The notes below the pieces were generated by a model. That model made no database searches, was not told the DNA's origin, and worked only from the letters and a program-made list of their open reading frames with translations. Position numbers and translations under genes: made by a program. Below are positions 8,393-62,440 of a stretch of 64,000 nt of DNA, in pieces. This DNA comes from Candidatus Omnitrophota bacterium (lineage in GTDB: Bacteria > Omnitrophota > Gorgyraeia > Gygaellales > Profunditerraquicolaceae): positions 1,084 to 65,083 of the forward strand of contig CAWDSS010000016.1 of NCBI GenBank assembly GCA_963805065.1, read 5' to 3'. The first letter of the stretch is position 1. Each line of letters starts with the position of its first letter.

Positions 8393-10723
8393 ATGAAACC
8401 CAGAATAAATTTTCTTATTTCCGTTCTTATAGCTTCTATTTTTATCGGTTTTGTATTAAGTTTCTTCTATAGCCGTTTGGTTATTTTCCCTCCGGACACT
8501 TTGAAAGAAGATAGGAATACGTTTTATCTGGATAAACCGGAGAAAAGTGATAATCGTTTAACAACATCTTTTGATTTGCCTTCTAATTCCTACCTTTTAA
8601 AGATCAAGCATATCTTCCAGGAAGGCCAGCCGCGGCAAATCTTATTCAATGGAACCCAGATAGATGCTGGTTTAATAATTTCTAATAAGAATAAAGGGGT
8701 TATAACCACCACCTACATCTATTTGCCTAGGAGACTCGTCAGGGAGGGGAAAAATACCATAGAGATACTTTTTCTCAAGAATCATCCTCCAGATGTGAAT
8801 ATTATTTTGACCAACTATTATAAAAATATAGGAGATCAATTTGCTTTAGTTTTTTCCGATTCAGTATTTTTTAACCACCGTCCTAAGTTCTCATTTACGA
8901 ATATACTTTTAAGTATAATCTTAGTGTTTACAGTATTCGTAGCAATGTCTTTGCTTTTAAATAGCATATTTTCTTTAGGTATGCGGAAGTATTTTTTGTA
9001 TCAGGTTTATTCTTCTATTCCTTTTCTTATTTTTTTATTTTTATTAACTATTATTCCTCAGAGTGTAAATAAAATATATAAAACAGCCATTATCCACGAT
9101 TCCTTCTTTGGCCTTGGTTTTTGCTCTTTTTTTATCACCCAAGCTTATTTAGTAATTAGAAAATATACCACTATAAAGGCAAGGTATCTTAATAAATTAA
9201 CTCAACTGTGGCAGGTCGTTATGAGTAATAAGATTCTGATTCTGCCTATCGTTGTTATCGTATACACAGTATTTGTTTTATTGAGCTTGACAAAAGAACC
9301 TCCGGTCCACTTTGATGAAGTAGCCTTTGCTAACAACGCACACTATGCATTTGATAGGAATGAATTTAGCGAAGCATCAAGGCCATTTAGCGGACAACTA
9401 CCTGCCCCAGGAAAAGTAACATTAATTATGAATCCACCCGCTTATCTATGGTTATTAGCTATTGCTACGCATTGCTTTGGATTGAATATTTATACGGTAA
9501 GGCTGACTTCTTTTTTGATAGGGATACTTCTTTTGTTTTCTTTCTTTTTCATCCTAAGGAAAATCATAAATAATGATATCTTGTTATTGTCAGTTTTATT
9601 TCTACTTGCGGTAGATCGTGATTTTATACGTGCTTCCAGATTTGGCAGGTCAGACATTTTAACCGTTTTTTTTATAACCCTAGCATTACTTTTTTATATA
9701 AAAACTTTAGAAGAGGATAATATTAAAGATTACTTTCTTACTGGATTATTTTCCGGCCTTTCATTTATGACTCACTTAGCATTAGGGTTACTCCCTTTGG
9801 TGCTTACAAATCTGCATTTTCTTTTAACCAACAAACTCAAAAAAGCGGTTTTCAGGAAATCACTATTTTTAATAATGCCGGCTTTAATATTTTTTGTATT
9901 ATGGATAGTATCCTTTATTCTTCCTGCCTTTTTACACAATCCGGGATTATTTAAAAATACACTTTCAGTATTTACACAAAGATCGGCGGCAGTCAAGGGA
10001 GTTTTCTTAACGCACCTAAGCGGTTTGATAGGAGGTGGTCGTGCGTACTATTATGTGAGATTTTACATTTATATATGTTTACTCTTTCCTTTAGCCATTC
10101 TTTTAAGAAATAAAACCGGCATAAGATTATTCCTTATACTGGTATATTTATTTATTTATTCCTTTATGCTTTTCATTGGAAGCCACTGGTATACAGTATT
10201 GTTAACGCCCTTAACGTGTTTGGCCTTCGTTTATTTAATAAAAGAAAAAGGGAAATATCAAAAATTGCTCATAGCGTTTTTAGTTATAGTTATTAGTTGC
10301 AATATCGCTTGTCAGGAACGAATTATAAGGAATAACAGGCATCAGCCATATTCATATGAAAACTATTCAAAGCGGCTGTCTAATTATTTGCCGATGGGCG
10401 CTAAGGTGTTAGTATTTGATTTATTTCCCGATCCATATTTCTACTTTGCTTCTTATAGAAAAGATCTAAAGTTAGAATTTCTATATAATTTTGGTATGGA
10501 TAGAGATAGAAAGAAAGAAGTAATAAAGACCGCTGATTATATTATAGTAGGGGGGAATCTTGCGGCAAAAAAAGATTCTCCAGATCGTGAGTTCTTAATA
10601 TCTTATGCGTTGAGTCATTCGCAATCCATTGTTTCCTTGGATGAGCGGGGAGCGCTAGTAGCTATATTTAATATGAAAAAACCAAATAAGGCAAGTGTCA
10701 TTAATCAAGGGAAATTTAGTTAA
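8393..10723 (+). CDS. large polytopic membrane protein, GT-C fold (ArnT/PMT, GT39/83-like) glycosyltransferase with extra N-terminal extracytoplasmic domain
   Basis: more than 12 hydrophobic segments; HFDEVAF acidic motif in the first loop after a TM helix, as in ArnT/PMT_2 enzymes. Confidence 0.5.
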   Translation: MKPRINFLISVLIASIFIGFVLSFFYSRLVIFPPDTLKEDRNTFYLDKPEKSDNRLTTSFDLPSNSYLLKIKHIFQEGQPRQILFNGTQIDAGLIISNKNKGVITTTYIYLPRRLVREGKNTIEILFLKNHPPDVNIILTNYYKNIGDQFALVFSDSVFFNHRPKFSFTNILLSIILVFTVFVAMSLLLNSIFSLGMRKYFLYQVYSSIPFLIFLFLLTIIPQSVNKIYKTAIIHDSFFGLGFCSFFITQAYLVIRKYTTIKARYLNKLTQLWQVVMSNKILILPIVVIVYTVFVLLSLTKEPPVHFDEVAFANNAHYAFDRNEFSEASRPFSGQLPAPGKVTLIMNPPAYLWLLAIATHCFGLNIYTVRLTSFLIGILLLFSFFFILRKIINNDILLLSVLFLLAVDRDFIRASRFGRSDILTVFFITLALLFYIKTLEEDNIKDYFLTGLFSGLSFMTHLALGLLPLVLTNLHFLLTNKLKKAVFRKSLFLIMPALIFFVLWIVSFILPAFLHNPGLFKNTLSVFTQRSAAVKGVFLTHLSGLIGGGRAYYYVRFYIYICLLFPLAILLRNKTGIRLFLILVYLFIYSFMLFIGSHWYTVLLTPLTCLAFVYLIKEKGKYQKLLIAFLVIVISCNIACQERIIRNNRHQPYSYENYSKRLSNYLPMGAKVLVFDLFPDPYFYFASYRKDLKLEFLYNFGMDRDRKKEVIKTADYIIVGGNLAAKKDSPDREFLISYALSHSQSIVSLDERGALVAIFNMKKPNKASVINQGKFS

Positions 10724-12466: not shown

Positions 12467-14320
12467 ATGAAGAAAAATATAATCATATTTATTATTTTTG
12501 CAATTTTAATTTCAACAACAACCTTTCCTCTAGTTTTTAAAATTACCACGCATATACCAGGTTTTTTTTCAAGCGATGAGTCGTATGGCTCAATTTGGAA
12601 CAGCTGGCGGATTAAATATTCCATAATTAATCATGCTTCATTAACGCATACCCAGTTCATCGCGTATCCATATGGTATGAATTTGTATAGTTCTTCAATG
12701 TTTTTCTATTTATGGCTGGCAGCGTTTAATTTGTTAAGCTTTTTAACTACACCAATTCTGACCTACAATATCATAGTTCTTATCGGTCTTTTTTTAAGTG
12801 CGATATTTGCTTATATATTGATTTTATATCTGACTAAAAATAAGCTGAGTTCTATCTTTGGCGCGATCATTTTTGCGTTTTGCCCTTACCAGTTTGCAAG
12901 AATATGGCAGCATCCGGGCTTAACTCAAAATGGATGGATTCCATTTGCAGTATTTACGGCTTTTTTTCTTAAGGACCGATTGACGCTAAAATCCGGTATT
13001 TTGTTTGTGGCGGGTTTGGCCATACCATTTTATCTTGATTGGACGGTTACCTACTTTGTGTATATCTCTATTGCTGTCTTATTAGGTTACGTCATAGCTT
13101 ATAATTGGCGGGTTAAATTTAAAAACTTAATAGAGCTAAAAAAAGACGCGAGTTATTTTAAAAGGATTATTTTGTTTGGTCTGATTGCGTTTGCTATATG
13201 TTTGCCGCAGATTTTTCCTTTTGTTAAAAATGCAATGAAAATCTCTCTACACTCTCAGGCTTCAGCATTTAATGCCTATCATCGATCCTTCGAGGACTTA
13301 TTTAGTCAATCCGCAAAACCCTTGAGTTATTTTTTGCCAGCAGCTGTTCATCCTGTTTTTGGTAAGTTTACTGAACAGTTTATAGGTTCGCCTTTGTATG
13401 GAGAAAGTTTTACCGAGCATACGCTATATTTAGGATGGATCCCCATTATTCTGGCTTTTGTTGCTATAAGAAGATGGAAGAGAAATAGAAAAAAACAGGG
13501 ACAGTCCCCTTCGGGGACAGTCCCTGTTGATAATGATAATTTCTACATCGGATTTTTTATATTTTTGGCAATCGTGGCCTGGCTTTTCTCACAGCCGCCA
13601 TGGTGGAAGTTCGGGTCAATAAGAATATTTATGCCCTCATTTTTTATGTATAGAATCTTACCGATGTACAGGGCTTATTGCCGGTTTGGGATTGTAGTGA
13701 TGTTAGCAGTTGCGGTTTTAGCTGGATTTGGGCTTAAGTTTATTTTAGAGAGATTTAAAAGCCAAAAAACAAAAATAGTCATTACTTGTTTATTTTCAGG
13801 TTTAGTCTTATTTGAATTCTGGAACTGGCCGCCTTATAAAGTTATCGATGTTTCAAGGGTGCCGGCTGTGTACTATTGGCTTAAGAGTAATCCGGGTGAC
13901 TTTGCGGTCGCTGAGTATCCCCTAGATGATAACGGGCCAAATGAGATGTATAAGTTTTATCAGACTACGCATGAGAAGAAGATCATCAACGGCACAATTC
14001 CCGGCACATATGCAAATGATGTCGCTAAGACTATAACCAGATTATCTGAGCCAAAAACCGCTTCGATTCTTAAATGGATGGGTGTAAAGTATGTTATTGT
14101 CCATAGGGACGAGTATTTAAGAACTGGGCTTATCGATGAGTTAGGGGAATTAAGCAGAATAGGGCAAAGCCCTTATTTGAGATTAATAAAATCTTTTCCT
14201 GAAGAGGTATGCCCCAATAAACAGATAATGTGTGTTCAAAAGACCGGGCCTATTGATGTCTATTCACTAGAATCGATTCCTTCACCTCCGGCTGTGTCAA
14301 ATAAAAGGGAGGTACGATGA
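12467..14320 (+). CDS. polytopic membrane protein, possible GT-C-type/YfhO-like glycosyltransferase; carries an in-frame palindromic repeat
   Basis: many TM segments, acidic SDES motif in the first loop, large C-terminal soluble domain; no specific family recognised with certainty. Confidence 0.4.
   Translation: MKKNIIIFIIFAILISTTTFPLVFKITTHIPGFFSSDESYGSIWNSWRIKYSIINHASLTHTQFIAYPYGMNLYSSSMFFYLWLAAFNLLSFLTTPILTYNIIVLIGLFLSAIFAYILILYLTKNKLSSIFGAIIFAFCPYQFARIWQHPGLTQNGWIPFAVFTAFFLKDRLTLKSGILFVAGLAIPFYLDWTVTYFVYISIAVLLGYVIAYNWRVKFKNLIELKKDASYFKRIILFGLIAFAICLPQIFPFVKNAMKISLHSQASAFNAYHRSFEDLFSQSAKPLSYFLPAAVHPVFGKFTEQFIGSPLYGESFTEHTLYLGWIPIILAFVAIRRWKRNRKKQGQSPSGTVPVDNDNFYIGFFIFLAIVAWLFSQPPWWKFGSIRIFMPSFFMYRILPMYRAYCRFGIVVMLAVAVLAGFGLKFILERFKSQKTKIVITCLFSGLVLFEFWNWPPYKVIDVSRVPAVYYWLKSNPGDFAVAEYPLDDNGPNEMYKFYQTTHEKKIINGTIPGTYANDVAKTITRLSEPKTASILKWMGVKYVIVHRDEYLRTGLIDELGELSRIGQSPYLRLIKSFPEEVCPNKQIMCVQKTGPIDVYSLESIPSPPAVSNKREVR
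13496..13526 (+). repeat. intragenic copy of the GGGGACAGTCCCC palindrome (related to the gap terminator), in frame within the 617-aa membrane protein
   Basis: CAGGGACAGTCCCC-TTC-GGGGACAGTCCCTG: 13 of 14 stem positions pair; encodes QGQSPSGTVP. Confidence 0.75.
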
Positions 14321-17950: not shown

Positions 17951-19195
17951 ATGAAAGATAAGATTGTAGCTGTTGTTGATTTCGTTATCTATTGGTCAAT
18001 ATTGCTTATTCCTTTTACAATGGCCATAGCAATTGCTCCCATGAGTATTTTTATGGGTTTGCTGATAGCCTGCTTTTTAGCCAAAAAAGCCCTTACTAAG
18101 CAAAAACTATTTATCTACACTCCGGTAGTAATACCTTTCTTGGCTTTCTTTGTAATCTGTACAATTTCTGTTATTAATACGATAAACCTTCAGGATAGCA
18201 TAAGGGGTTTAATCAGGTATCTGCAGTATCTTTTTATATTTTTAATTATGGCTGAAGAAATAAAAGATAAAAAGTATATTCAAAGGATCGTGATTTCTCT
18301 GGTTGCAGGGCTTTGTTTGGTATCAATTGATGCGGTATGGCAGGTAATTACAGGGAAAGATTTTATCCGGGGGAATTCTGTTATAATCAATATCGGGCTT
18401 CGGAGGGCAACTGCGGCTTTTTCCGACGCGAATGTATTAGGTATTTATATCAGCGCAATAATCCCGCTGATCTTAGGTTTGGCAATTTATCATTTCAAAA
18501 AGAATAAGAATATCATTATACCTGCTGTAAGTTTCTTAGGATTAACAGGTTTAACGCTTACCTATTCGCGGCCGACTTTGCTGGCGTTGTATTTAAGCTT
18601 GCTGTTCCTGGCAATTTTTAAAAAAGACAAGGTTTTAATAGTTGTTTTGATTATAGCGGCCGTGATTTCTCCTTTTATTGCTCCCAGGAGTATTAAGGAT
18701 TATGCGAAGGAAGTTAATTACAACCCCGTAAGATTCATGTGCAATGATGACCGCATCGCAATTTATAAAAACTCTTTCAATATGATAAAGGCGCATCCTG
18801 TAATAGGAGTGGGAGTAAATACCTTTATGAAAAACTACAAGAGATACAAAGAATTTCCAGAGTACCGCAATATTATTACTCCTGATTTAATTTATGCCCA
18901 TGATAACTTCATACAGATGGCCGGGGAAACCGGTTTGTCAGGGTTAGCTATATTTATTTGTTTTCTATACGTCCTATTCAGGGAAATTGCTTATATATTT
19001 GGCAGCTTGAAGGATGAATATCATAGAATAGTATTGATGTGTTTATGCGCCTGCCTGATTGCTTTCTTAATAAACGGCCTTACTGAAAGCAGTTTCTATT
19101 ATTCCCGTGTGGCGGTTATGTTCTGGTTTTTAATTGGGTTTTCGCTTTCTTTTAAGAAGTTTGTTGGTGAAGAAGCGCCAGGTAAAAATGATTAA
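17951..19195 (+). CDS. O-antigen ligase/polymerase family membrane protein (Wzy_C/WaaL-like)
   Basis: about 10 TM segments and AHDNFIQMAGETGLSGL motif (H-N-x-x-L/Q-x-x-x-E-x-G) typical of WaaL-like proteins. Confidence 0.7.
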   Translation: MKDKIVAVVDFVIYWSILLIPFTMAIAIAPMSIFMGLLIACFLAKKALTKQKLFIYTPVVIPFLAFFVICTISVINTINLQDSIRGLIRYLQYLFIFLIMAEEIKDKKYIQRIVISLVAGLCLVSIDAVWQVITGKDFIRGNSVIINIGLRRATAAFSDANVLGIYISAIIPLILGLAIYHFKKNKNIIIPAVSFLGLTGLTLTYSRPTLLALYLSLLFLAIFKKDKVLIVVLIIAAVISPFIAPRSIKDYAKEVNYNPVRFMCNDDRIAIYKNSFNMIKAHPVIGVGVNTFMKNYKRYKEFPEYRNIITPDLIYAHDNFIQMAGETGLSGLAIFICFLYVLFREIAYIFGSLKDEYHRIVLMCLCACLIAFLINGLTESSFYYSRVAVMFWFLIGFSLSFKKFVGEEAPGKND

Positions 19196-20102
19196 AAACA
19201 TACTTGTGGTACGCAATGACCGCTTCGGGGAATTTTTGCTGAATATCCCGGCATTAAGGGCGATTAAACAAACTTATCCGCAGGCAAAAATAACGCTGGC
19301 AGTTAGTAAAGAGGTAGAAGGGCTTGCTAAGGCAATTGAATACGCAGACGTTGTTGTAATTTGGGATGTTGATTTTAGGAAGTCATTACGCAGGCATAAA
19401 TTTGATGTTTGCGTTATTCTGAATCCTAGTAAAGAAGCGCATACCGCTAGTTTATTAGCCGGTATTCCTGTTCGCGTAGGTTACAACAGGAAATGGGGGT
19501 TTTTATTAACCCATAAGATTGCAGATAAAAAAGACCTCGGTTTGAAACATGAAATTGACAGCAATCTTGAATTAGTCAGCCTGATAGGAGCCGATACCAA
19601 AGACAAAAGTTTATCTTTGGGCAGGCTTCCCGTCTACAGCAATACCAAATACATGGACGCAGTGGCAGTGCATCCTTTTACAAGTGACCCACGAAAAGAT
19701 TGGCCTATTGAGAGATTCCAGGGGTTAATAAATAAAGTTACCCGAGACCTCGGCAACAAGGTGATAATCATCGGTAAGCTTGAAGATATCAACAAAGCAA
19801 GGGATTTTTCAGAGGTTTCAGGTGAAACAGTTATTAATCTGGTTAATAAAACAACTTTAGTGGAATTAGCTAATATTCTAAAGCAGTGTAAGCTGTTGGT
19901 AACTGGCGATAGCGGCCCCATGCATATGGCTTGCGCAGTAGGAACTCCTGTAATTGCATTATTCAGAAATGATTTGCCGGGAAAAACCGCCTTAAGGTGG
20001 GGTCCAAAATCTAACGGCAGCATTATTATTGAAAATAATAATCTTTCCAATATCTCAGTTGATGAGGTATTTGTCAAGATAAGAGAGGTGTTAAATAGAT
20101 GA
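19188..20102 (+). CDS. glycosyltransferase family 9 (heptosyltransferase-like)
   Basis: start moved to ATG 19188 (ATGATTAA overlap with upstream stop); ILVVRNDRFGEFLL and TGDSGPMHMACAVGTP GT9 motifs. Confidence 0.75.
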   Translation: MIKNILVVRNDRFGEFLLNIPALRAIKQTYPQAKITLAVSKEVEGLAKAIEYADVVVIWDVDFRKSLRRHKFDVCVILNPSKEAHTASLLAGIPVRVGYNRKWGFLLTHKIADKKDLGLKHEIDSNLELVSLIGADTKDKSLSLGRLPVYSNTKYMDAVAVHPFTSDPRKDWPIERFQGLINKVTRDLGNKVIIIGKLEDINKARDFSEVSGETVINLVNKTTLVELANILKQCKLLVTGDSGPMHMACAVGTPVIALFRNDLPGKTALRWGPKSNGSIIIENNNLSNISVDEVFVKIREVLNR

Positions 20103-21166
20103 TATATCCGATTATATTAGCAGGCGGTATTGGAAGCCGTTTTTGGCCGCTTAGCACTGATGCCTTGCCAAAGCAATTCTTAAATCTTTGTTCAAGCCAA
20201 CCCCTATTGTTTGAGAGCGTAAAAAGAGTAATGCCATTAAGTAATAAAGATAGCATATATGTAGCGGGAAACAAAAGCTATAAAGACTTGACCATTGCCT
20301 GCCTGAAAAAATTAGGCATACCTAAAGCCAACTTCCTTTTTGAGCCAACAGGTAAAAATACCTTCGCACCCATAGCCGTATTGTCCAAAATCATCTTAGA
20401 AAAAGATAAACAAGCTGTAATCGCTGTTTTTCCTTCTGATCACTTTATAAAAAATAAGGACAAATTCCTGGGAGCATTAAAAAAAGCAGTTGAGGCAGCC
20501 AAAGGAGCAAATATCGTAACGTTGGGTATAAGGCCAACAAGGCCAGAAACGGGGTTTGGCTATATTAAAGTAAAGGCAAAAGTAAAAAGCCAAAAGTTAA
20601 AAGTAAAAAGTCAAAAGGCAAAAGTAATGGATGTGGAAAAGTTTATAGAAAAGCCGGATTTAAAGACTGCAAAGAAACTGATAAGAGACAAAAGATTTTA
20701 TTGGAATGCGGGAATTTTTATTTTCCAAGCAAAAACTCTGCTTGATGAGATAAAAAGGACGCAGCCTAAGCAATACAAAATAATTTCTAAAATTAAAACC
20801 CCACAGCAAGCAGGCAAAATTTGGAAGACACTTCCTTCTGTGTCAGTTGATTACGCTGTAATGGAGCGAAGCAATAAGCTTAAGCTAATCCCTGTGGATT
20901 GCGGATGGTCTGACTTGGGCAGCTGGCAGGCAATGGAGGAAATTAAGAAGAGCGATAAGCGGGGAAATTTGTTTTTATGCAAGAACATAGATTTAGGCAG
21001 TAAGGATACCTTAGTCTGGTCTGACAGCAGGCTGATTGCAACCGTGGGTTTGAATAATCTTATTATTGTCGATGCAAACGATTCACTTTTAGTCTGCGCT
21101 AAAGACAAGGCTCAAGAAGTAAAAAAGGTTGTGGAAATCATAAGAAAAAAAGGAAAAATTAATTGA
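20099..21166 (+). CDS. manC: mannose-1-phosphate guanylyltransferase-like sugar nucleotidyltransferase, with Lys-rich low-complexity insert
   Basis: ILAGGIGSRFWPLS, PETGFGYI, FIEKPD motifs of the ManC/CpsB N-terminal domain. Confidence 0.75.
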   Translation: MIYPIILAGGIGSRFWPLSTDALPKQFLNLCSSQPLLFESVKRVMPLSNKDSIYVAGNKSYKDLTIACLKKLGIPKANFLFEPTGKNTFAPIAVLSKIILEKDKQAVIAVFPSDHFIKNKDKFLGALKKAVEAAKGANIVTLGIRPTRPETGFGYIKVKAKVKSQKLKVKSQKAKVMDVEKFIEKPDLKTAKKLIRDKRFYWNAGIFIFQAKTLLDEIKRTQPKQYKIISKIKTPQQAGKIWKTLPSVSVDYAVMERSNKLKLIPVDCGWSDLGSWQAMEEIKKSDKRGNLFLCKNIDLGSKDTLVWSDSRLIATVGLNNLIIVDANDSLLVCAKDKAQEVKKVVEIIRKKGKIN

Positions 21167-26801: not shown

Positions 26802-28608
26802 AGGCCCGTTTGATTATATCATACCGGCGGAATTAGAAAAAAAAGCAAAGACAGGCGAAAGAGTCTGGGTAAATTTCTGCAATAGGAAGATGCCGGGTTA
26901 TATCGTAGGAATCACCCGCAAATCCAAAATCAAGAAACTTAAACGGATAATCGAGCTTATTGATGAATTCCCTGTCTTGGATAAGGGCATGCTTTTGGTT
27001 ACGAGGTGGCTATCGGAATATTATTGCTGTTCCTGGGGGGAGGCTATTGATGCCGCCCTTCCGGAAAGTATCAGAAAGGGGAAATCCGTTGCAGGAATGC
27101 CTTCCCTGGCTATTAAAAATAATACGGTTTCCTGTCCTGAAGCCCTGCTATTACAGGATTTGGATGGCGCCAGGAGATGGGATGTTTATTTAGAAGCAAT
27201 AAAAAATACCTGTTTGGAAAATAAACGCTCAATCCTGATATGCCCTGATAAGCTTTTGGCATTAAAGGCACAGCAGATAATTAAAGAAAGGCTTGGATTT
27301 TCTTCTGAGGTTTTATATAGGAAAATCCCCAAAGAACTAGATACCTGGCTTAAGATAAAAGAAGGTAAAGCCAATATCGTAGTGGGAACGCTTTCTGCCG
27401 TATTTTCTCCCGTAAGTAACCTGGGCTTGATTATTATTGATGAAGAAAATGACCCGGCTTATAAACAGGATCAGGTGCCGCATTACAACGCAAGGGAAGT
27501 AGCGCGCAAGCGTTGCCAAATCGAAAAGGCAAAACTTATTTTGGGAAGTACCCGCATTTCTTTAGAGAGTTTCTATGCTGCCGGTAGGAATGAAATCAAG
27601 TATCTTACGCTCGGAAGCCAAAAACAATATCCGCAAATTCAGATTATCGATATGAAATCAGAATACAACCTCAAAAACAAGAATAAATTACTTTCAAAAT
27701 ACCTGCAAGATGCGGTTTTTTCGGCTATTAACGCAAAAGAAAAGGTATTATTATTTTTAAACCGCAAAGGCTTTGCTACCAGCGCCACCTGCCACAATTG
27801 CGGCGTTTCTTTAAGATGCCCCCGCTGTAACATTAATCTGGTATATTATTTTGCGCAAAATTCCCTGAATTGCCATTATTGTAATTTTAAAATGGAGGTA
27901 CCAAGAATCTGTCCCGCATGTAATGCCGGCTACATTAAATTTTCCGGAACGGGGACGGAGAAAATTGAAAGTGAACTATCGAGATTATTCCCACTCGCCA
28001 GAATTAAAAGAATAGATTCCAATGTACCCCAAGACTTACAAAACTGGGATATATTTATTTCTACGAGTTCTATAGTGAAGCAAAAAGATTATAATTTCGA
28101 CCTGGTAGGTGTCCTTTCCATTGATAATAGTTTAAACCGGATAGATTTTCGCTCTACAGAAAAAACCTTTTATTTATTGTCCAGCCTGTTAACTATGACC
28201 GCAAAGAAACTTATAGTGCAGACAGCACTTCCCAATAATTATTGTTTTCAGTCGCTAATAAAAAATGACCAGCGTATTTTTTATAATCAGGAATTAAACA
28301 ATAGAAAACAGTTATCATTTCCACCTTTCAGGCATATGGCCGCGGTAAAGTTCAGAGGTAAAGTAGAAGACAAGGTAAAGAAGTCAAGCGGCTTGTTTTT
28401 CGAAAAACTTAAAGAATGCGATAGCCCCCAAGGCATTAAAATTATTTCCCTTATTGCGGATTCACCTGCTAAATTACGCGGTAATTTTTACTGGAAGATA
28501 TTGGTAAGTTCACCGGATGCCAGGAGAATGAGCGGGTTCTTAAAAAACCGCTTAAAAGATTTTTCTCATTCAGGTATAATAGTTACAGTAGATGTAGATC
28601 CCTTATAA
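26764..28608 (+). CDS. priA: primosomal protein N' homolog with degenerate ATPase motifs
   Basis: N-terminal 3'-DNA-binding-domain-like region, Cys-rich Zn-binding insert (CHNCG..CPRCN..CHYCN..CPACN); Walker A/B positions diverged. Confidence 0.75.
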   Translation: MLFARVVLGLHVEGPFDYIIPAELEKKAKTGERVWVNFCNRKMPGYIVGITRKSKIKKLKRIIELIDEFPVLDKGMLLVTRWLSEYYCCSWGEAIDAALPESIRKGKSVAGMPSLAIKNNTVSCPEALLLQDLDGARRWDVYLEAIKNTCLENKRSILICPDKLLALKAQQIIKERLGFSSEVLYRKIPKELDTWLKIKEGKANIVVGTLSAVFSPVSNLGLIIIDEENDPAYKQDQVPHYNAREVARKRCQIEKAKLILGSTRISLESFYAAGRNEIKYLTLGSQKQYPQIQIIDMKSEYNLKNKNKLLSKYLQDAVFSAINAKEKVLLFLNRKGFATSATCHNCGVSLRCPRCNINLVYYFAQNSLNCHYCNFKMEVPRICPACNAGYIKFSGTGTEKIESELSRLFPLARIKRIDSNVPQDLQNWDIFISTSSIVKQKDYNFDLVGVLSIDNSLNRIDFRSTEKTFYLLSSLLTMTAKKLIVQTALPNNYCFQSLIKNDQRIFYNQELNNRKQLSFPPFRHMAAVKFRGKVEDKVKKSSGLFFEKLKECDSPQGIKIISLIADSPAKLRGNFYWKILVSSPDARRMSGFLKNRLKDFSHSGIIVTVDVDPL

Positions 28609-28642
28609 AGTTAAAAGTTAAAAGCCAAAAGGTAAAACTTAA

Positions 28643-29575
28643 ATGAATATAGTTTTCTTTGGAAGTTCGAAATTTGCCGTCCCTGCATTAGAAGCAATAA
28701 TAAAATCAGGCAGTAAAGTCTTATGCGTAGTTACGCAGCCTGACAGGCAAAAGGGCAGGGGTATGCATTTTGAAGGCACGGCTGTTAAGCATACTGCCAA
28801 TCAGTACAAGCTGAAATTATACCAGCCCCAAAAAATTAATAACGTTACCGCCTTTAATTTATTAAAAGAACTAAAGCCTGACCTGTTCGTAGTCGTATCT
28901 TACGGCCAGATATTATCAAAGGAAATCTTAAGCCTGCCTAAAATATTCTCCATTAATGCCCATGGCTCGCTGCTTCCTAAGTACCGAGGCGCAGCACCTA
29001 TTAATCGGGCAATTATAAACGGCGAGCAGGTTACAGGGGTAACTATAATTAAGATGAATGAGAAAATGGATGCCGGAAAAATCATTATGCAAAGCCAAAT
29101 CCTAATTAAAGACGAGGATAACGCTATTGAGCTTGAAGGAAAACTTTCCCTGCTTGCCGCAGAATTACTGGTGGATTCTGTAAAACATATCAGCCGCAAT
29201 GATTACAAATTAAAACCGCAGCTGGGAGAGGTTTCTTTTGCTCCCAAGCTTATTAAGCAAGACGGATTGATAAATTGGGAGGTAAGCGCCCAACACATCT
29301 ATAATCTGATCAGGGGATGTATTAGCTGGCCGGGCGCCTTTACGCACTGTAAAGGTAAGTTATTAAAAATTTATAAAGCAAGTTTGTCTTACGAAGAATA
29401 TAGCGGCGTTAAGCCGGGTGAAATAATAAAAGTCTTAAAAGACGGGATAGTGGTGGCGGCGGAAGACCGCGCCTTGATTATCCGGGAACTTCAGATTGAA
29501 GGAAAGCGCAGGATGAAAGCCGAAGAATTCATTTCAGGCCATAAAATTTCCCCGGGAGAAATTTTTGACAAATAA
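28643..29575 (+). CDS. fmt: methionyl-tRNA formyltransferase
   Basis: IVFFGSS.FAVP, PDRQKGRG, SINAHGSLLPKYRGAAPI motifs. Confidence 0.9.
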   Translation: MNIVFFGSSKFAVPALEAIIKSGSKVLCVVTQPDRQKGRGMHFEGTAVKHTANQYKLKLYQPQKINNVTAFNLLKELKPDLFVVVSYGQILSKEILSLPKIFSINAHGSLLPKYRGAAPINRAIINGEQVTGVTIIKMNEKMDAGKIIMQSQILIKDEDNAIELEGKLSLLAAELLVDSVKHISRNDYKLKPQLGEVSFAPKLIKQDGLINWEVSAQHIYNLIRGCISWPGAFTHCKGKLLKIYKASLSYEEYSGVKPGEIIKVLKDGIVVAAEDRALIIRELQIEGKRRMKAEEFISGHKISPGEIFDK

Positions 29576-39520: not shown

Positions 39521-40743
39521 TGAAGCAGGTTTTGACATTTATTATGGCAGGAGGAAAGGGAGAGCGTCTTTATCCTTTAACTAAGGATAGGACGAAGCCG
39601 GCTGTGCCATTTGGCGGCATATACAGGATTATTGATTTTACGCTGAGTAATTGTATTAATTCGGGTCTACGTAAAATTTACCTGCTTACGCAGTATAAGT
39701 CCGCATCTTTACAAAAGCATATCCGTTTAGGCTGGAATATCCTGCCTTCAGAGTTAGCCCAATTTATTGAAATCCTTCCCGCACAGCAAAGAATCGGTGA
39801 TTCCTGGTATTTGGGGACTGCAGACGCCATATTTCAGAATCTTTACACGTTGGAAATTGACCTTCCTGATGAAGTGCTGATTTTGGCAGGCGACCATGTG
39901 TATAAGATGAATTATTATTCCATGATAGATTTTCATCGCGAGCTGGATGCTGATTTAACCGTAGGGGTAGTTGAGGTTGATAAGGACAAGGCAAGCCATT
40001 TGGGTATTGTGGAAGTTGACGATAGCGGCATGGTGCAGGGATTCCAGGAAAAGCCCATGAAGCCAAAAGTAATACCTACAAATCCGGATAAGGTATTTGC
40101 CTCCATGGGAATTTACAATTTTAAACGCTCGATTCTTGAGCAGGAATTACATGAGGATGCCAAGAAACATAATTCAACGCATGATTTCGGCAAAGACATT
40201 ATCCCTCAAATGCTTAAGAAAGGATTAAAAATAGCCGCCTACAACTTTATTGATGAGAATAGGAAACAGGCAAAATATTGGCGCGACATAGGAACCATTG
40301 AAGCCTATTATGAGGCAAATATGGACTTGGTGCAGGTTAATCCCACGTTTAACCTTTACGATAAAGATTGGCCTATAAGGACTTTTCAGGAGCAGTTTCC
40401 ACCTGTGAAAACAGTTTTTGCCGGGGAAGAAATGCCAGGCAGGGTGGGCCTGGTGCTTGATTCGGTTATTTCCAACGGCTGCATTGTGAGCGGCGGGAGA
40501 GTGCAGCGCTCAATACTTTCTCCCAATGTAAGGATTAACAGCTATTCTGAAGTCTATGATTCTATCCTTATGGAAGGCGTAAACGTGGGAAGGCATGCCA
40601 AAATAAAAAGAGCGATAATTGATAAAGATGTAGTTATCCCTTCAGGTATGGTTATCGGGTATGATTTAGAAGAGGACAAGAAGCATTTTAGTGTCAGTGA
40701 ATCCGGTATTGTAGTGGTGGCAAAGAGGACAGAAATAAAGTAA
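39517..40743 (+). CDS. glgC: glucose-1-phosphate adenylyltransferase
   Basis: start at ATG 39517 (ATGA overlap with marC stop); MAGGKGERLYPLT, FGGIYRIIDF, WYLGTADA, C-terminal left-handed beta-helix repeats. Confidence 0.9.
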   Translation: MMKQVLTFIMAGGKGERLYPLTKDRTKPAVPFGGIYRIIDFTLSNCINSGLRKIYLLTQYKSASLQKHIRLGWNILPSELAQFIEILPAQQRIGDSWYLGTADAIFQNLYTLEIDLPDEVLILAGDHVYKMNYYSMIDFHRELDADLTVGVVEVDKDKASHLGIVEVDDSGMVQGFQEKPMKPKVIPTNPDKVFASMGIYNFKRSILEQELHEDAKKHNSTHDFGKDIIPQMLKKGLKIAAYNFIDENRKQAKYWRDIGTIEAYYEANMDLVQVNPTFNLYDKDWPIRTFQEQFPPVKTVFAGEEMPGRVGLVLDSVISNGCIVSGGRVQRSILSPNVRINSYSEVYDSILMEGVNVGRHAKIKRAIIDKDVVIPSGMVIGYDLEEDKKHFSVSESGIVVVAKRTEIK

Positions 40744-40773
40744 AAAGTTAAAAGCCAAAAGTTAAAAGTTAAA

Positions 40774-41241
40774 ATGGAAAATCAAAATATTAGAAAAGCA
40801 AAGATACAAGATATCAAGCAAATCCAAAGTTTAATAAACTATTTTGCCGATAAAGACCTCATGCTGCCCAGGTCTTTGAACGAATTGTACGAAAATCTGC
40901 GGGATTTCTGGGTATATGAAGAAAATAAAAAAATCCTGGGTTGCGCTGCGTTACATATCTCTTGGGAAAATTTAGCGGAGATAAAGTCTTTGGCAGTGCA
41001 AACAGGCATACAAAATAGAGGGATTGGCCAAGATTTAATTTCTATATGCATAAGAGAAGCAAAAGAATTGGGAGCCAAGAGAGTATTTGTCCTTACCTAC
41101 CATTTTAAATACTTTCGTAAATTAGGCTTTAAACGGGTGAACCACGCGGACCTGCCACATAAAATTTGGGCAGAATGCATTAATTGTCCCAAATTCCCCA
41201 ATTGCCAGGAAGTCGCCTTGATAAAAAATATAGCCAGATAA
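40774..41241 (+). CDS. GNAT-family N-acetyltransferase (ArgA C-terminal-domain-like)
   Basis: IQNRGIGQDL acetyl-CoA-binding (Q/R-x-x-G-x-G/A) motif, about 155 aa. Confidence 0.75.
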   Translation: MENQNIRKAKIQDIKQIQSLINYFADKDLMLPRSLNELYENLRDFWVYEENKKILGCAALHISWENLAEIKSLAVQTGIQNRGIGQDLISICIREAKELGAKRVFVLTYHFKYFRKLGFKRVNHADLPHKIWAECINCPKFPNCQEVALIKNIAR

Positions 41242-41291: not shown

Positions 41292-42443
41292 ATGGATTAT
41301 TTACTGACTGATGAACAAAAAATGATTAAGGAACTGGCTCATAAGATCGCCGAAGAAAAAATCCGGCCGGTGGCTGCCAAGTATGACCAGACGGAAGAAT
41401 ATCCATGGGAGATTATTAAGATTATTGCTGATGCAGGGCTTTTCGGCTTATTTATACCGGAAGAGTACGGCGGGATGAGCGTAGGTGTTTTAAACTTATG
41501 CCTTGCTACGGAAGAATTATCGCGCGCCTGCGGCGGTATTGCTGTTTGTTATGCAGCTTCTGCTTTAGGAACGTTCCCAATAGTGTTATTTGGCAATGAC
41601 CAGCAAAAGAAAAAATACCTGCCGGCTTTAGCCAGCGGTAAAAAAGTCGCTGCTTTTGCTATTACTGAACCGGAAGCGGGATCCGATGCATCTGCAATTA
41701 AGACCACGGCAAAAAAGGAAGGGGATTATTATATTTTAAACGGCCTTAAACATTTTATAACCAACGGCGGTGACGCAGAAACTTATGTAGTTATTGCCAT
41801 GACAGATAAAACAAAAGGCGCAAGAGGCGCCTCCGCATTTATCCTGGAAAAAGGTACCCCAGGGTTTACTTTCGGCAAAAAAGAGGATAAGTTTGGCATC
41901 CGTGCCTCCTCGACCAGTGAATTAGTATTCACGGATTGTAAAATACCCAAAGAAAACCTGCTTGCCAAAGAAGGCATGGGTTTTATCGTTACCATGAGGA
42001 CATTTGATATGTCCAGGCCTGGAGTTGCTACGCAGGCTTTAGGGATAGCGCAAGGCGCGCTGGAATTAGCAGTAAAATACGCCAAAGAAAGGCATCAGTT
42101 CGGAAAATCGATTTCCACTTTCCAGGGAATACAATGGATGCTTGCTGACATGGCTACGGAAATCGAAGCTGCCAGGGGCCTGGTTTATTCAACCGCAAGA
42201 ATGGTTGATGCTGGGATTAAGGATGTTGCCAAAGAGTCAGCCATGGCAAAGATGTTTGCATCGGATGTGGCAATGAAAGTCACAGTGGATGCGCTCCAGA
42301 TATTCGGCGGCTATGGTTACATGAGAGATTATCCTATTGAAAAATACGTAAGAGATGCTAAGATTACACAAATTTACGAAGGGACAAACCAGATTCAGCG
42401 CAATATCATTGCTTTACAGTTAATAAAAGAAATGGCCAAGTAA
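41292..42443 (+). CDS. acyl-CoA dehydrogenase (short-chain/butyryl-CoA dehydrogenase-like)
   Basis: TEPEAGSDA, catalytic-base region YEGTNQIQ, size 383 aa; followed by etfBA. Confidence 0.9.
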   Translation: MDYLLTDEQKMIKELAHKIAEEKIRPVAAKYDQTEEYPWEIIKIIADAGLFGLFIPEEYGGMSVGVLNLCLATEELSRACGGIAVCYAASALGTFPIVLFGNDQQKKKYLPALASGKKVAAFAITEPEAGSDASAIKTTAKKEGDYYILNGLKHFITNGGDAETYVVIAMTDKTKGARGASAFILEKGTPGFTFGKKEDKFGIRASSTSELVFTDCKIPKENLLAKEGMGFIVTMRTFDMSRPGVATQALGIAQGALELAVKYAKERHQFGKSISTFQGIQWMLADMATEIEAARGLVYSTARMVDAGIKDVAKESAMAKMFASDVAMKVTVDALQIFGGYGYMRDYPIEKYVRDAKITQIYEGTNQIQRNIIALQLIKEMAK

Positions 42444-42553
42444 AGTAAAAAGGAAAAAGCCAAAAGTAAAAAGTAAAGGAAAAAGCCAAAAGTAAAAAGT
42501 AAAGGAAAAAGCCAAAAGTAAAAACTTTTACCTTTTTGCTTTTAACTTTTGAG
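42444..42553 (+). repeat. tandem array (about 2.9 x 26 nt, AGGAAAAAGCCAAAAGTAAAAAGTAA) followed by an imperfect inverted copy; A-rich word family
   Basis: units at 42451-42476, 42477-42502 and 42503-42525; inverted TTTTACCTTTTTGCTTTTAACTTTT at 42526-42550. Confidence 0.8.
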
Positions 42554-42559
42554 TAATCG

Positions 42560-43110
42560 TTCAGCAACCCTCGGGCTTCAGCCCGAGGAAGAATGAACGA
42601 CGAAGCGAAGCCAGTTTCAACTGGCGGAGCGAAGAAAGTTATGGCATAATCTGGCTATGCCCAGATATTGGAAGGGAAAACATACAAAGCACAAGCTCCA
42701 ATACCATTTGGTATGGGTGCCTAAATATCGTAAGAGGGTATTGCGAGGCAAAATAGCCTATCGTTTACGAGGGTTATTGTATGAAGGCTGTAGGATAAAC
42801 CGATGGTGGATAGGCAAGATAAGCGTACAGTACGATCATGTGCATGCGTTGATACAGCTTAATCCAAGTGATAGTGTTGCTGAAGTAGTCAAGATATTAA
42901 AAGGCGGAACAAGCAGGGTAATCCGCAAAGAATTTCCAGAGCTGCAAGAGTTTTTATGGGGAAATAGTTTTTGGGCAGATGGTTATTTTGCCGAGTCGGT
43001 TGGTCAAGTTGATGAAGAAGTTGTCAGAAAGTACATCGATGAGCAACGAAAATAGCCAGATTATGCCAGAAGCAAGAAACCTCGGGCTTTAGCCCGAGGA
43101 GTATTCATTT
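42560..43110 (+). mobile_element. IS200-type (IS200/IS605 family, tnpA only) insertion sequence; ends approximate
   Basis: tnpA flanked by near-identical hairpins CCTCGGGCTTCAGCCCGAGG (42569-42588) and CCTCGGGCTTTAGCCCGAGG (43080-43099) and by inverted 14-mers GGCATAATCTGGCT (42643-42656) / AGCCAGATTATGCC (43054-43067). Confidence 0.65.
42657..43055 (+). CDS. tnpA: IS200/IS605-family Y1 (HUH) transposase TnpA
   Basis: 132 aa; YHLVWVPKYRK, HUH motif (DHVHALI), C-terminal catalytic Tyr region (RKYIDEQ). Confidence 0.9.
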   Translation: MPRYWKGKHTKHKLQYHLVWVPKYRKRVLRGKIAYRLRGLLYEGCRINRWWIGKISVQYDHVHALIQLNPSDSVAEVVKILKGGTSRVIRKEFPELQEFLWGNSFWADGYFAESVGQVDEEVVRKYIDEQRK

Positions 43111-43116
43111 TAAAAT

Positions 43117-48660: not shown

Positions 48661-49824
48661 TTAACAGCAGATTGTATTCTTGCCTGTCTTTTTTGCCTGA
48701 TAGAGTAATTTGTCGGAAGTAGAGATTAGCTCTGAAGCAGTCTGCCCGTCTTCGGGGTAAGTAGCCAGGCCCAGGCTGATAGTCAGTTTTTTCTGAGGCA
48801 GAATCTCTTCATTAACAAAGGCGTGCCTTTCAATATCCATTCTTAAGCGCTCAGCAATTAGAAGCGCTTCTTTTTTTTCTGTCTGAGGCAGGATTATGGT
48901 AAATTCCTCCCCGCCGTACCTGCATACATAATCCATTTTCCGGGACTGGTTTTTAAGAATCAAGGCCAGTTCCTTAAGGATGTTGTCTCCTGCCTGATGC
49001 CCAAGCTGATCGTTATAAACTTTGAAGTCGTCAATATCCAGCATGACCAGGCTTAAATGCGTTGAAGTTGCTTTAGCCTTTTCTACTTCCATATGCAGCA
49101 GGAACTGAAAATATCCGTGGTTCCATAATTCAGTGAGAGAGTCCAGGTGTGCCAGCATTACTGTTTTCTCATAAAGTTGCGAGTTTTCAATTGCCAGGCC
49201 TGCCTGGTTTGCTAACATGGTCAGCATACGAATATCGTCTTTGGTAATAGGTTTTCGTGTAATGAGATTATCCGCGACTATCAATCCATTAACCTTATCT
49301 TTAGCCTTAAGGGGAACCAAGACCAGTTCCTCACTGTTTAACATTTTTACAATAGGGGAGTTTTGATAGTTTTTTATGGTTTCTCTGGTTAGGTGCAGTG
49401 GCATACCTTCTAATACGGCTAAGGCTAGTAGATTCTCATTCTTATCCTGCAAAGAGACTTTAAGATTCTGTACCTGTCTGCTAAACCCGGATAAAAATAC
49501 GCCGTTTGAGGTTTTGTATACGTTGATGAGATCGTCCAAATTCATGCGTTCTTCTTCAATCTGGGTCCACATCCGGTTGGCCTCTTCTCCGGTCTCAGGA
49601 CCAATAGCCATTTTGCCCTCTATAAGGTTTTCCTTCCTATTGATTAAGAAAAGTAAGGCCCGGTTAAGGCCCAAGCCAATATGCGCAGTTACGCCGGTTA
49701 AGATGATGTATAAAATTTCATCCAGTTTAAGCGTGGTGCGCATGGCGTTGGATATCTCATGGAGTATGCCAAGCTCCATTCTTGTGCGGTCTAATTCCTG
49801 TTTTATTTTGGTTATGTCATCCAT
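48661..49824 (-). CDS. GAF-domain diguanylate cyclase (GGDEF) with intact I-site
   Basis: N-terminal GAF-like region; RKMD-x5-GGEEF (RxxD inhibitory site plus GGEEF active site). Confidence 0.85.
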   Translation of the reverse strand: MDDITKIKQELDRTRMELGILHEISNAMRTTLKLDEILYIILTGVTAHIGLGLNRALLFLINRKENLIEGKMAIGPETGEEANRMWTQIEEERMNLDDLINVYKTSNGVFLSGFSRQVQNLKVSLQDKNENLLALAVLEGMPLHLTRETIKNYQNSPIVKMLNSEELVLVPLKAKDKVNGLIVADNLITRKPITKDDIRMLTMLANQAGLAIENSQLYEKTVMLAHLDSLTELWNHGYFQFLLHMEVEKAKATSTHLSLVMLDIDDFKVYNDQLGHQAGDNILKELALILKNQSRKMDYVCRYGGEEFTIILPQTEKKEALLIAERLRMDIERHAFVNEEILPQKKLTISLGLATYPEDGQTASELISTSDKLLYQAKKTGKNTICC

Positions 49825-50031: not shown

Positions 50032-51054
50032 ATGGTATTAGATAAGAAAAAAGAAGAATTGCACAATATTTCTGACCGTCAGAAGGCCCTGGAACTTGCC
50101 CTTTCTCAGATAGAGAAACAATTCGGAAAAGGTTCAATCATGAAATTAGGAGGAGAAGTCAAGGTTAACGTAGAAACAATTCCTACGGGTGCTTTGACTT
50201 TGGATTTAGCTTTGGGTGTAGGTGGCCTTCCGAAGGGCAGGGTTATTGAGATTTTCGGTCCGGAAGCTTCGGGAAAGACCACGATTACTTTAACCGCAAT
50301 AAGAGAGATACAGAAAAAGGGCGGGGTTGCTGCTTTTATTGATGCGGAACACGCCTTTGATTCCACTTATGCTAAAATTATCGGACTGAATCTGGATGAC
50401 CTTTTGATTTCACAGCCGGATACCGGAGAACAGGCTTTAGAGATTGCCGAAACACTGGTACGTTCAAATGCGGTTGATTTAGTGGTAATCGATTCTGTTG
50501 CCGCTCTTACCCCGCGCGCAGAAATAGAAGGCGAGATGGGGGATTCTCACATGGGTTTACAGGCTAGGTTAATGTCCCAGGCGCTAAGAAAACTTACTGG
50601 AGCAATAAGCAAATCGCGCACCTGTGTAATATTTATCAACCAGATTAGAGAAAAAATCGGCGTGATGTTTGGTTCGCCGGAGACAACGCCGGGAGGTAGG
50701 GCCCTTAAATTCTATTCTTCTGTCAGGTTAGACGTGAGAAGAATTGCTTCGTTAAAAGAGGGTGATGCAGTAGTCGGGGGCAGGGTGAGGGTTAGAGTAG
50801 TAAAGAATAAAGTCGCTCCGCCATTTAAAGAGGCAGAATTCGAAATTTTACATAATGAAGGAATCTCTAAGACAGGCGCTATTTTGGATGCGGCAGTTAA
50901 CTCGGAAGTAGTGGCTAAATCCGGCACATGGCTATCTTTCCGTGACGAAAAATTAGGACAGGGCAGGGACGCTTCCATAAAATTACTGAAAGAAAAAACT
51001 AAGATACGGGATGAGATAGAGAAAGAGGTTAGGAAAAAAATAGGTTTGGGTTAA
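50032..51054 (+). CDS. recA: recombinase A
   Basis: GPEASGKTT Walker [10 protein letters not shown], canonical RecA sequence throughout. Confidence 0.97.
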
Positions 51055-51083
51055 GGGGTAAGGGTTAAGGAGGGTTGAGGGTT

Positions 51084-59484: not shown

Positions 59485-59522
59485 AGCTTTCAGCTTTCAG
59501 ATAGAGCTGACGGCTGACGGCT
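59485..59522 (+). repeat. imperfect hairpin built from tandem heptamers (AGCTTTC x2 / CTGACGG x2.7) between the lipoprotein gene and hisF
   Basis: 16 stem positions: 12 Watson-Crick, 2 G-U, 2 mismatches; no T-run. Confidence 0.4.
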
Positions 59523-59533
59523 GACAGCGGAGC

Positions 59534-60634: not shown

Positions 60635-60701
60635 AGAAAAGGGGACGTTTCTATTTTTAACGTTTCCTAATCAGAAGAAAAATAGAAACGTCCCCTTTTC
60701 T
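60635..60701 (+). repeat. conserved palindromic intergenic element, copy 3 (after hisI); probable intrinsic terminator
   Basis: 24-bp stem AGAAAAGGGGACGTTTCTATTTTT / AAAAATAGAAACGTCCCCTTTTCT, loop AACGTTTCCTAATCAGAAG. Confidence 0.8.
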
Positions 60702-60777
60702 TCACATTAAATAACTCAAAAGGCAAAATGCAAAACGCAAAACTGCAACGCAAAACGTAAAACGTTTTGAGCTTACT

Positions 60778-62262: not shown

Positions 62263-62310
62263 TGTAATGTGTAAAGTGTAATGTGTAATGCCAGTGTAAC
62301 GCAAAATAAA

Positions 62311-62385: not shown

Positions 62386-62440
62386 CCACGTTACACATTA
62401 CACATTAAACGTTACACAGGAAATAAAGGAGGAAACACAA

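Follow-up and report, generated by a model that had tools for sequence, protein, structure and literature searches.

Among the longer simple repeats of many bacteria, heptamers are the most over-represented class. An explanation by slippage linked to the polymerase footprint has been put forward, and coding regions seldom contain units whose length is not a multiple of three (Mrazek et al. 2007, as reported in PMC4679880 and PMC4692102). Here, we describe heptamer arrays in a stretch of 64,000 nucleotides (the window) from a Candidatus Omnitrophota bacterium of the family Profunditerraquicolaceae (assembly GCA_963805065.1, contig CAWDSS010000016.1, positions 1,084 to 65,083 of the forward strand). 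One of these arrays lies in frame within a gene for a ManC-like mannose-1-phosphate guanylyltransferase and carries a 12-mer, AAAAGCCAAAAG, that recurs across the window. We consider it probable (roughly 70%) that this 12-mer belongs to a family of heptanucleotide arrays that arise in situ as slippage-type simple sequence repeats (SSRs) and whose reading frame is selected, and that it is not a captured mobile element.

The arrays consist of at least three head-to-tail 7-nt units, go along with an excess of period 7 and lie mainly between genes near the ends of open reading frames (ORFs), which places them in the class of heptanucleotide long SSRs or short tandemly repeated repetitive (STRR) sequences. 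With long SSRs in general they share the tandem 7-nt units, the dominance of period 7 among the longer repeats and the mostly non-coding location, and the slippage origin proposed for long SSRs fits them as well. They differ in that heptamers and octamers recur inside conserved enzymes of Omnitrophota, in three-unit steps and at fixed loops. Cyanobacterial heptamers of the STRR type were reportedly described by Mazel in 1990. Intergenic heptamers of the GGGAATC and GGGGAYT types are found near ORF ends in Xanthomonas and Nostoc, where they vary between close relatives and sometimes form inverted pairs (Rehm 2015, PMC4692102). The location near ORF ends and the occasional inverted pairs able to form stem-loops are common to these repeats and ours, whereas their units are G-rich and quadruplex-capable and the AAAAGNN units of the window are A-rich, predicted to be unstructured and free of G-tracts.

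A close parallel is offered by the TAACTGA arrays of marine Beggiatoaceae, cyanobacteria and Bacteroidetes, which are located near start codons with few Shine-Dalgarno motifs and have some copies in ORFs (MacGregor 2015, PMC4679880). As in that system, arrays of two to six or more units stand a few nucleotides upstream of starts in Omnitrophota, often overlap the upstream stop codon, are accompanied by few Shine-Dalgarno motifs and have some copies in ORFs; the stop-containing units observed here (GTTAAAA, GTAAAAA) likewise yield stops in all frames. TAACTGA dimers themselves are absent from the window and from eight syntenic loci of related genomes (L201 to L208). The two systems differ in that a single unit dominates a genome in the TAACTGA case, while several coexist in Omnitrophota, and in that the TAACTGA copies within ORFs are situated at protein termini or in hypothetical proteins, while those of Omnitrophota occupy internal loops of conserved enzymes.

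Short repeated DNA within genes is also known from other settings. Mobile units with set ends and a constant length, often palindromic, are found in Rickettsia (palindromic elements) and in cyanobacteria (small dispersed repeats). They resemble the present arrays in placing short repeated DNA in frame at tolerant surface positions of conserved proteins, but the Omnitrophota arrays have no fixed ends, vary in unit number and are not palindromic. Repeats of this type were reportedly described by Elhai in 2008 (cited in PMC3116915). Heptanucleotide repeats control HMW1A in Haemophilus, a phase-variable contingency locus (PMC8262952). Such loci equally consist of slippage-prone short tandem units near gene starts, yet they switch surface-antigen genes on and off by shifting the frame or the spacing of a promoter, while the arrays of Omnitrophota remain in frame in housekeeping enzymes across species. 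In Borgs, in-frame tandem repeats arise independently and create disordered protein regions (bioRxiv 10.1101/2022.05.18.492195). Here the likeness is the addition of disordered hydrophilic segments by in-frame tandem nucleotide repeats; the difference is that Borg units are longer, are divisible by three in ORFs and belong to archaeal extrachromosomal elements, whereas units of 7 or 8 nt are codon-compatible only in threes. The kind of repeat is thus already known, and Omnitrophota is a phylum without an earlier description in the literature searched, in which no paper on heptamer repeats in Omnitrophota or on these units was found. The distinctive feature here is that quantized arrays recur in frame within conserved enzymes, always at the same few loops.

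Heptamer arrays in the window

The window contains the 12-mer AAAAGCCAAAAG seven times without mismatch, always on the plus strand (20585, 28620, 40750, 42455, 42481, 42507 and 58051), and once with one mismatch, at 13757, in agreement with the preliminary description. Dinucleotide-preserving shuffles predict 0.07 matches, and none of 100 shuffles reached seven. The seven copies represent five independent loci, as the trio at 42455-42518 consists of perfect 26-nt tandem copies and counts as one event. All seven are located inside (AAAAGNN)n arrays with a 7-nt period, which Tandem Repeats Finder (TRF) reports at 20578-20627, 28607-28643, 40737-40774, 42442-42524 and 58036-58070 with 5.0 to 12.4 copies. 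Since AAAAG is fixed in each unit, an array only needs NN = CC in one unit to contain the 12-mer, which is therefore not an independent signal. The earlier argument that chance is implausible holds for the arrays, but the comparison with random sequence overstates it for the 12-mer, with five rather than seven independent events. The real signal is the arrays, with a modest residual preference for one GCC unit. The motif AAAAGNNAAAA occurs 36 times on the plus strand (6.9 expected), and the array family is biased to the mRNA strand, 36 against 5. CC is the most common NN (9/36), and each independent AAAAGNN array has exactly one GCC unit. Avoidance of stop codons was rejected as the reason for this unit, as GTA is equally allowed in that codon phase.

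A chance origin in A-rich DNA, or an assembly artefact, would be suggested by the 61% A+T content of the window and the low complexity of the word. Either is extremely improbable in view of the shuffles, of sequencing reads that are longer than the arrays and of matching arrays that independent assemblies of other samples carry at these positions. Period 7 as such is enriched as well: the window holds seven period-7 runs against 0.17 in third-order Markov simulations, corresponding to 109 per Mb compared to 15.5 per Mb in unrelated control loci totalling 0.9 Mb. These control loci were drawn from a metagenome scan by ManC alignment and are mostly relatives of 35-40% identity among the matches listed; period 7 is the top class there too. 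Across 237 kb of Omnitrophota DNA, period 7 accounts for 64 of the 175 TRF rows, followed by period 9 (25) and period 8 (17). Heptamer arrays are thus unusually dense in this lineage. Where genes of one direction are separated by a short spacer, they fill it, in many cases all the way from stop to start codon. Beyond the preliminary description, the unit is a heptamer, and arrays of many other sequences pervade the genome of the window and its relatives.

Spacers that adjoin a stop or start codon harbor three of the five AAAAGNN loci and every other strong array of the window. The array at 28607-28643 (plus strand) fills the whole spacer between priA and fmt, beginning at the TAA stop and ending at the ATG, and that at 40737-40774 (plus strand) fills the whole spacer between a glgC-like nucleotidyltransferase gene and a GNAT gene, from stop to ATG, without a Shine-Dalgarno motif. 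A third, at 42442-42524 (plus strand), directly follows the stop codon of an acyl-CoA dehydrogenase (ACAD) gene and comprises three perfect 26-nt copies of AAAAGNN-type units (TRF period 26, 2.9 copies, 100% match). Three arrays start where the upstream gene stops (TAA-AGTWAAAAG) and two extend to an ATG. Next to the third array, an inverted arm of the same family at 42523-42550 (AAAAGTTAAAAGCAAAAAGGTAAAAG on the minus strand) pairs with the last direct copy into an A/U-rich hairpin of -19.3 kcal/mol (z = -2.3). The remaining two arrays are located in the manC-like gene and in hisH; the gene names given earlier for all these flanks (PriA, Fmt, GlgC-like, GNAT, ACAD, HisH) were confirmed. A weak relative of three units (AAAAGCC AAAAAAC AAAAATA) is present in frame at 13757-13777 (plus strand) in the ORF 12467-14320, though its membership of the family is uncertain. 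As scans of the window with Rfam and for tRNAs returned no hits, the arrays correspond to no curated RNA family.

The preliminary description viewed the segment in the ManC-like gene as an intergenic repeat family apparently captured into the enzyme or expanded within it. Generalized, capture would make the repeat a bounded mobile element of about 26-33 nt, akin to miniature inverted-repeat transposable elements, repetitive extragenic palindromic sequences, Rickettsia palindromic elements or cyanobacterial small dispersed repeats, with five insertions of which two are in frame within genes. An alignment of 11 copies does reveal a core of about 33 nt that is common to the five loci and has the unit order GTW, GCC, GKW. 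However, this core consists of heptamer units only; conserved flanks or ends were not found in the alignment, similarity stops at the edge of the array, and most of the apparent identity stems from the fixed AAAAG of every unit. In the alignment, the copies of the window show no shared ends, inverted termini or target duplications, which gives no support to the idea that a mobile intergenic element was captured, and the gene map of the window has no transposase nearby. A near-identical 36-nt cassette in the fmt and GNAT spacers was rejected on the same ground, namely that the identity in the alignment is mostly that of AAAAG.

Arrays inside conserved enzymes

The ManC-like gene (20099-21166, plus strand) was identified from its ORF, its match to a solved structure and the Pfam domains of its homologues. 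Its product aligns with PDB entry 2x5s over residues 4-347 (E = 1.1e-63), and its homologues carry PF00483 and PF22640. With an NTP-transferase domain, a C-terminal beta-helix and similarity to solved enzymes, it belongs to the ManC (GDP-mannose pyrophosphorylase) group. The closest homologues of this protein and of the HisH protein of the window are from Omnitrophota, and each of the two is the single member of its 90% cluster. A look-up of the exact ManC sequence found no record.

As described earlier, the repeat segment at 20567-20626 is in frame between the GFGYI and FIEKPD motifs of ManC, where it encodes KVKAKVKSQKLKVKSQKAKV. Its codons are AAA GTA AAG GCA AAA GTA AAA AGC CAA AAG, continued by TTA AAA GTA AAA AGT CAA AAG GCA AAA GTA. 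The AAAAGNN array itself extends over 20572-20627 (plus strand), with about eight units or 2.7 times 21 nt. TRF scores it at period 7 (20578-20627, 7.1 copies), at period 14 and at period 21 (2.7 copies, 85% match). The array is opposite a 10-residue gap in 2x5s, in line with the short loop of solved homologues, and the AlphaFold model has a predicted local distance difference test (pLDDT) score below 50 at residues 163-173, flanked by strands at 155-158 and 177-183. Mapping on the structure thus supports the loop location proposed before, and in the model the Lys-rich insert forms the tip of a beta-hairpin.

Among 120 ManC homologues, this loop varies from 24 to 50 residues, with the series 29, 36, 43, 50 and 37, 45, and identity of residues at a period of seven is frequent in the 29-residue loops. 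The ManC of the window has one 21-nt period more than this common form. A best-deletion search for the extra unit gave an ambiguous placement because the array is periodic; judged by the model, the extra period sits at the low-confidence hairpin tip. An orthologue with 53% protein identity, in the related genome L201, contains a matching AAAAGTN array (10475-10506 of that locus) that reads AAGTCAAAAGTAAAAAGTCAAAAGTCAAAAGT in the same frame as in the window. Because such a distant orthologue shares it, the array is old, with one further 21-nt period added in the genome of the window. Lys-rich segments with a period of seven are also frequent in ManC proteins throughout Omnitrophota. The refuting condition set in the preliminary description thus applies in part: distant orthologues do have a homologous Lys-rich segment, but one that is seven residues shorter.

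At the same site of ManC, the related genome L204 has an octamer array, (GTCACAAC)x3.9, and the loci L121 and L122 of other Omnitrophota have GC-rich in-frame hairpins. The latter (L121 7169-7215; L122 2181-2260) are part of a wider set of GC-rich palindromes in ManC and HisH loops, which are also inserted in the proteins P0018, P0026, P0044, P0153 and P0187 and translate into PACLAGR, PSLAGRQA and similar peptides. Longer loop inserts in P0012 and P0050 read NPSTTLRIDGERSRTI and resemble translated dispersed GC-rich repeats. The L122 insert has direct copies of AGTCAAAAGT on both sides.

In hisH, the array at 58036-58070 (plus strand) adds seven residues compared to uninserted orthologues, based on TRF and a comparison of loops. 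The HisH loop has 30-32 residues in 65 proteins, 37-38 in 40 and 39 in 11, with a few longer ones. Identity between residues i and i+7 is present in 25 of the 40 loops with six or seven additional residues, and identity between i and i+8 in six of the 11 loops with eight, while 62 of the 65 uninserted loops lack a period. At the DNA level, the uninserted loop of L209 reads AAAAAA-GTCACCA-GT, while L206 contains a perfect (GTCACAA)x4.3, L208 a perfect (AAATCCC)x4.6 and L207 (GTCACAAC)x4.4. The AAAAGNN arrays of the window and of L205 are degenerate, match in 35 of 42 nt and have the same order of first variable letters; by this sequence evidence the two are probably orthologous.

A third in-frame hot spot is found in HisF, directly after AIDAKK (L205 3944-3974, L206 12301-12337, L207 12247-12281). 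Three different units occupy this one codon position: (AAATCCC)x4.4 in L205, (AAGCTCC)x5.3 in L206 and the GTCACAAC octamer in L207. The hisF gene of the window (59534-60289) has no insert after AIDAKK. In all three enzymes the coding arrays differ in steps of seven residues (three heptamers) or eight residues (three octamers). Changes of unit that switch the frame were not observed: every coding array among the orthologues examined keeps the frame, and the loop lengths differ by seven or eight residues only. Empty sites are available for HisH (L209) and HisF (the window); the 'insert' is in each case a multiple of the local unit, and direct repeats flank only the hairpin insert of L122.

These loops bear on the possibility that the Lys-rich peptide itself is selected, for instance for binding to a membrane, a nucleic acid or a partner, with the DNA repeat merely reflecting Lys codons in an AT-rich genome. 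A K-x-K-rich segment is indeed kept at the array loop in many Omnitrophota ManC proteins, and AAAAGCC read in three frames gives the fully hydrophilic KSQKPKA. We nevertheless regard such selection as very unlikely. Coding for Lys requires no 7-nt period in the DNA, and AAAAGCCAAAAG is translated as K-S-Q-K in ManC and as K-K-P-K in HisH; as the frame differs between the two genes, the conserved entity is the DNA and not the peptide, in agreement with the DNA-level repeat proposed before. Other lineages have non-Lys segments (VTSHKSQVTS, IPNPKSQIP, LQAPGSKLQAP) or nothing at these loops, non-coding spacers are filled by the same DNA family, and the ManC insert is a low-confidence segment that is predicted to be disordered. 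Most likely, the Lys-rich peptide of ManC has no selected function and is a by-product that the protein tolerates.

Turnover among related genomes

Syntenic loci of nine related genomes (L201-L209) were compared. Besides the HisH and HisF hot spots, the priA-fmt and his-operon spacers vary between these genomes in both length and sequence. The priA-fmt spacer is built from AAAAGNN in the window, from CAAAACG and GCAAAAG in L202, from AACCATG in L203 and from degenerate GGAGTTA-like units in L201. In the his operon, the spacers contain (GTAGTAG)x6.6 starting from the stop codon together with AAGCTTA in L208, (AGTAGGT)x4.3 in L207, and (TAGTTCT)n with an inverse (ATGAACC)n in L206. Orthologous spacers thus keep their architecture and not their sequence. 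Tandem heptamers and octamers are enriched and recur in the same spacers and loops of the clade while their units change, and the coding copies follow three-unit steps in loops.

Replacement can be complete over short distances: L205 and L207 are 85% identical over 5.5 kb of DNA, but the array content differs entirely at both in-frame hot spots. This wholesale replacement, the recurrence of units across hot spots and genomes, and the in-frame hairpin of L122 between direct AGTCAAAAGT copies are, along with the common core and unit order of the five loci, observations in favor of a mobile element. They are outweighed, in our opinion, by the arrays of ManC and HisH whose site and frame are shared with distant relatives and by the arrays of unrelated units at those very sites in other lineages, which, together with the missing ends and termini, make a mobile element quite unlikely.

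Two further repeats were observed in these loci. In L201, an in-frame octamer array with a GTCAC core (GTCACTAT / GTCACCAG) is located in fmt (18502-18539) and adds two residues compared to the window and L202. The spacer after secDF contains a hairpin of about 37 nt, GGAAAAATAATTCTGACCCCGTTTTTCCGCGCGA, in three tandem copies in L205 (9021-9160) and in one copy in L207 (17424-17495).

A scan of a genome collection (596 Gb) for AAAAGNNAAAAGCCAAAAG yielded mostly single matches among those listed, spread over many phyla and near chance level. Pure (AAAAGCC)n arrays among the matches listed are from Maribacter, Angelobacter, Terriglobales, Bdellovibrionota, Peptococcaceae and Calditrichia. Pure or mixed arrays of this unit in distant phyla include L016 1-140, L003 1998-2060, L030 150-320, L009, L022, L025, L043 and L052, with at least 19 units in Maribacter, nine in Angelobacter, and blocks of AAAAGCC, AAAAACC and AAAAGTT in Calditrichia.

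Arrays upstream of genes

The location of the intergenic arrays raises the possibility that they are selected as cis-acting RNA: unstructured A-rich leaders that recruit ribosomes, or a protein of the S1, cold-shock or CsrA type, instead of a Shine-Dalgarno motif, with the coding copies as by-products. We hold this to be possible, though tentative. Two arrays reach the ATG of fmt and GNAT without a good Shine-Dalgarno motif, and both leaders are predicted to be essentially unstructured (-3.7 kcal/mol for fmt and -0.1 kcal/mol for GNAT), although these energies do not differ from those of shuffles with the same composition. Shine-Dalgarno motifs are present in four of the 16 array-bearing spacers versus 34 of the 59 others (p = 0.026). 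A role in translation initiation would fit this depletion, which is, however, an association only, and arrays could merely grow where a Shine-Dalgarno motif is not needed. An equivalent proposal exists for the TAACTGA repeats (PMC4679880). The excess of the AAAAGNN family on the mRNA strand would also fit; it is confounded, as nearly all genes are on the plus strand. About 55 of the 63 ORFs of at least 150 residues in the window have this orientation, and all plausible genes do except 48661-49824, so that any strand bias of repeats in the window is confounded with gene orientation. Moreover, orthologous spacers differ in unit sequence and hence conserve no specific binding site, and three of the five loci are away from start codons. 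No promoter motif was linked to the arrays. In the explanation that we prefer, one weaker element is that A-rich intergenic arrays may act as unstructured leaders without Shine-Dalgarno motif that aid or modulate translation initiation of the downstream gene.

Other repeats of the window

Other units form arrays at four further places, all detected by TRF. GGGTTAA and GAGGGTT arrays (51048-51083, plus strand) abut the start at 51075. AGCTTTC (x2.3) and GCTGACG (x2.9) arrays are found in the spacer 5' of hisF (59485-59525, plus strand), and a CAAAACG-like array of 7.6 units (60713-60764, plus strand) precedes the ATG at 60778. Upstream of rpsP, an inverted pair of heptamer arrays, (GTGTAAT)4.1 and (ATTACAC)4.6, surrounds a terminator-like hairpin (62262-62418, unstranded). 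These inverted arrays, between a trpE-like gene and rpsP, would lengthen the stem of the hairpin element; comparable pairs are present in L206 (10632-10709) and L208 (4835-4951). The hairpin belongs to a dispersed element of about 70 nt, AAAAGGGGACGTTTCTATTTTT - loop - AAAAATAGAAACGTCCCCTTTTCTT, with copies at 60636-60703 and 62316-62383; further, incomplete copies immediately precede the ORF starts at 36498, 41292 and 52704. With its long stem, an A-run before and a T-run after, it looks like a conserved repeat family of terminator type that is possibly bidirectional. Finally, about 560 nt without a long ORF (42555-43116) separate the ACAD gene and its array from an electron transfer flavoprotein gene. 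This region has no Rfam hit at the gathering threshold and is bounded by copies of a GC-rich hairpin, CCTCGGGCTT(C/T)AGCCCGAGG, at 42569-42588 and 43080-43099.

Origin and maintenance of the arrays

In the explanation we prefer, slippage-type events at the site itself would create the arrays and let them turn over, with units of 7 nt, or at times 8 nt, being gained or lost. Within genes, only three-unit changes (21 or 24 nt) preserve the frame, and selection would purge the out-of-frame states. The resulting peptide would be the unit read in all three frames, which is presumably tolerated in solvent-exposed loops only, so that arrays would persist at the ManC tip and in the HisH and HisF loops as additions of seven or eight residues. 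The units retained in genes should be those with a stop-free and hydrophilic three-frame translation. AAAAGCC is such a unit, while one frame of AAAAGTA and of AAAAGTT contains a TAA. The three-frame coding constraint is passed by about 54-105 AT-rich unit classes.

Several observations weigh against in-situ slippage as the full account. Coding arrays have gained three units from an apparent single seed, whereas simple slippage adds one unit at a time, and intermediates of +7 or +14 nt, states that would inactivate the gene, were not seen in the coding arrays. A jump from one to four units in essential genes thus requires either the addition of multiple units in one event or short-lived frameshifted intermediates. 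The wholly different arrays at both hot spots of the 85%-identical L205 and L207 are awkward for purely local evolution, and L207 has the identical octamer at both. A few units recur across genomes and sites, which the 54-105 allowed classes explain only in part, and the single GCC unit of each independent array is not predicted by independent decay. The association with Shine-Dalgarno motifs is modest, covering 16 spacers.

These points would be accommodated by a non-local or processive process of repeat-writing. At fixed hot spots, it would install or replace whole blocks of units of 7 or 8 nt, with the intergenic arrays serving as ribosome-loading leaders independent of a Shine-Dalgarno motif. 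Candidate routes are reiterative synthesis that adds multiple units at once and copying from another array or from an RNA template. If true, repeat-writing would account for the one-to-four jumps in essential genes without visible frameshift intermediates and for wholesale replacement at 85% identity, as well as for one octamer at two hot spots, the small phylum-wide set of units and the single GCC unit. We nonetheless consider it unlikely and favor in-situ turnover with selection on the reading frame.

Two other processes were considered and set aside. Programmed frameshifting or transcriptional slippage on A-runs finds no zero-frame A AAA AAG heptamer and no run of at least nine A residues. 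Adenine mutagenesis of the type exerted by diversity-generating retroelements was dropped since the copies differ at non-A positions.

Significance

For annotation, Lys-rich or 'KSQ'-type inserts in these proteins are best read as by-products of repeats, rather than as functional motifs or insertions of mobile elements. More broadly, the clade represents a natural experiment, in which the loops of ManC, HisH and HisF and the spacers of operons are occupied by genome-specific units. Young arrays, which are perfect, can be set beside old, decayed ones, and the coding copies are filtered to three-unit steps. By virtue of this combination, comparative data can be used to measure how fast, in which direction and in what steps repeats are gained and lost.

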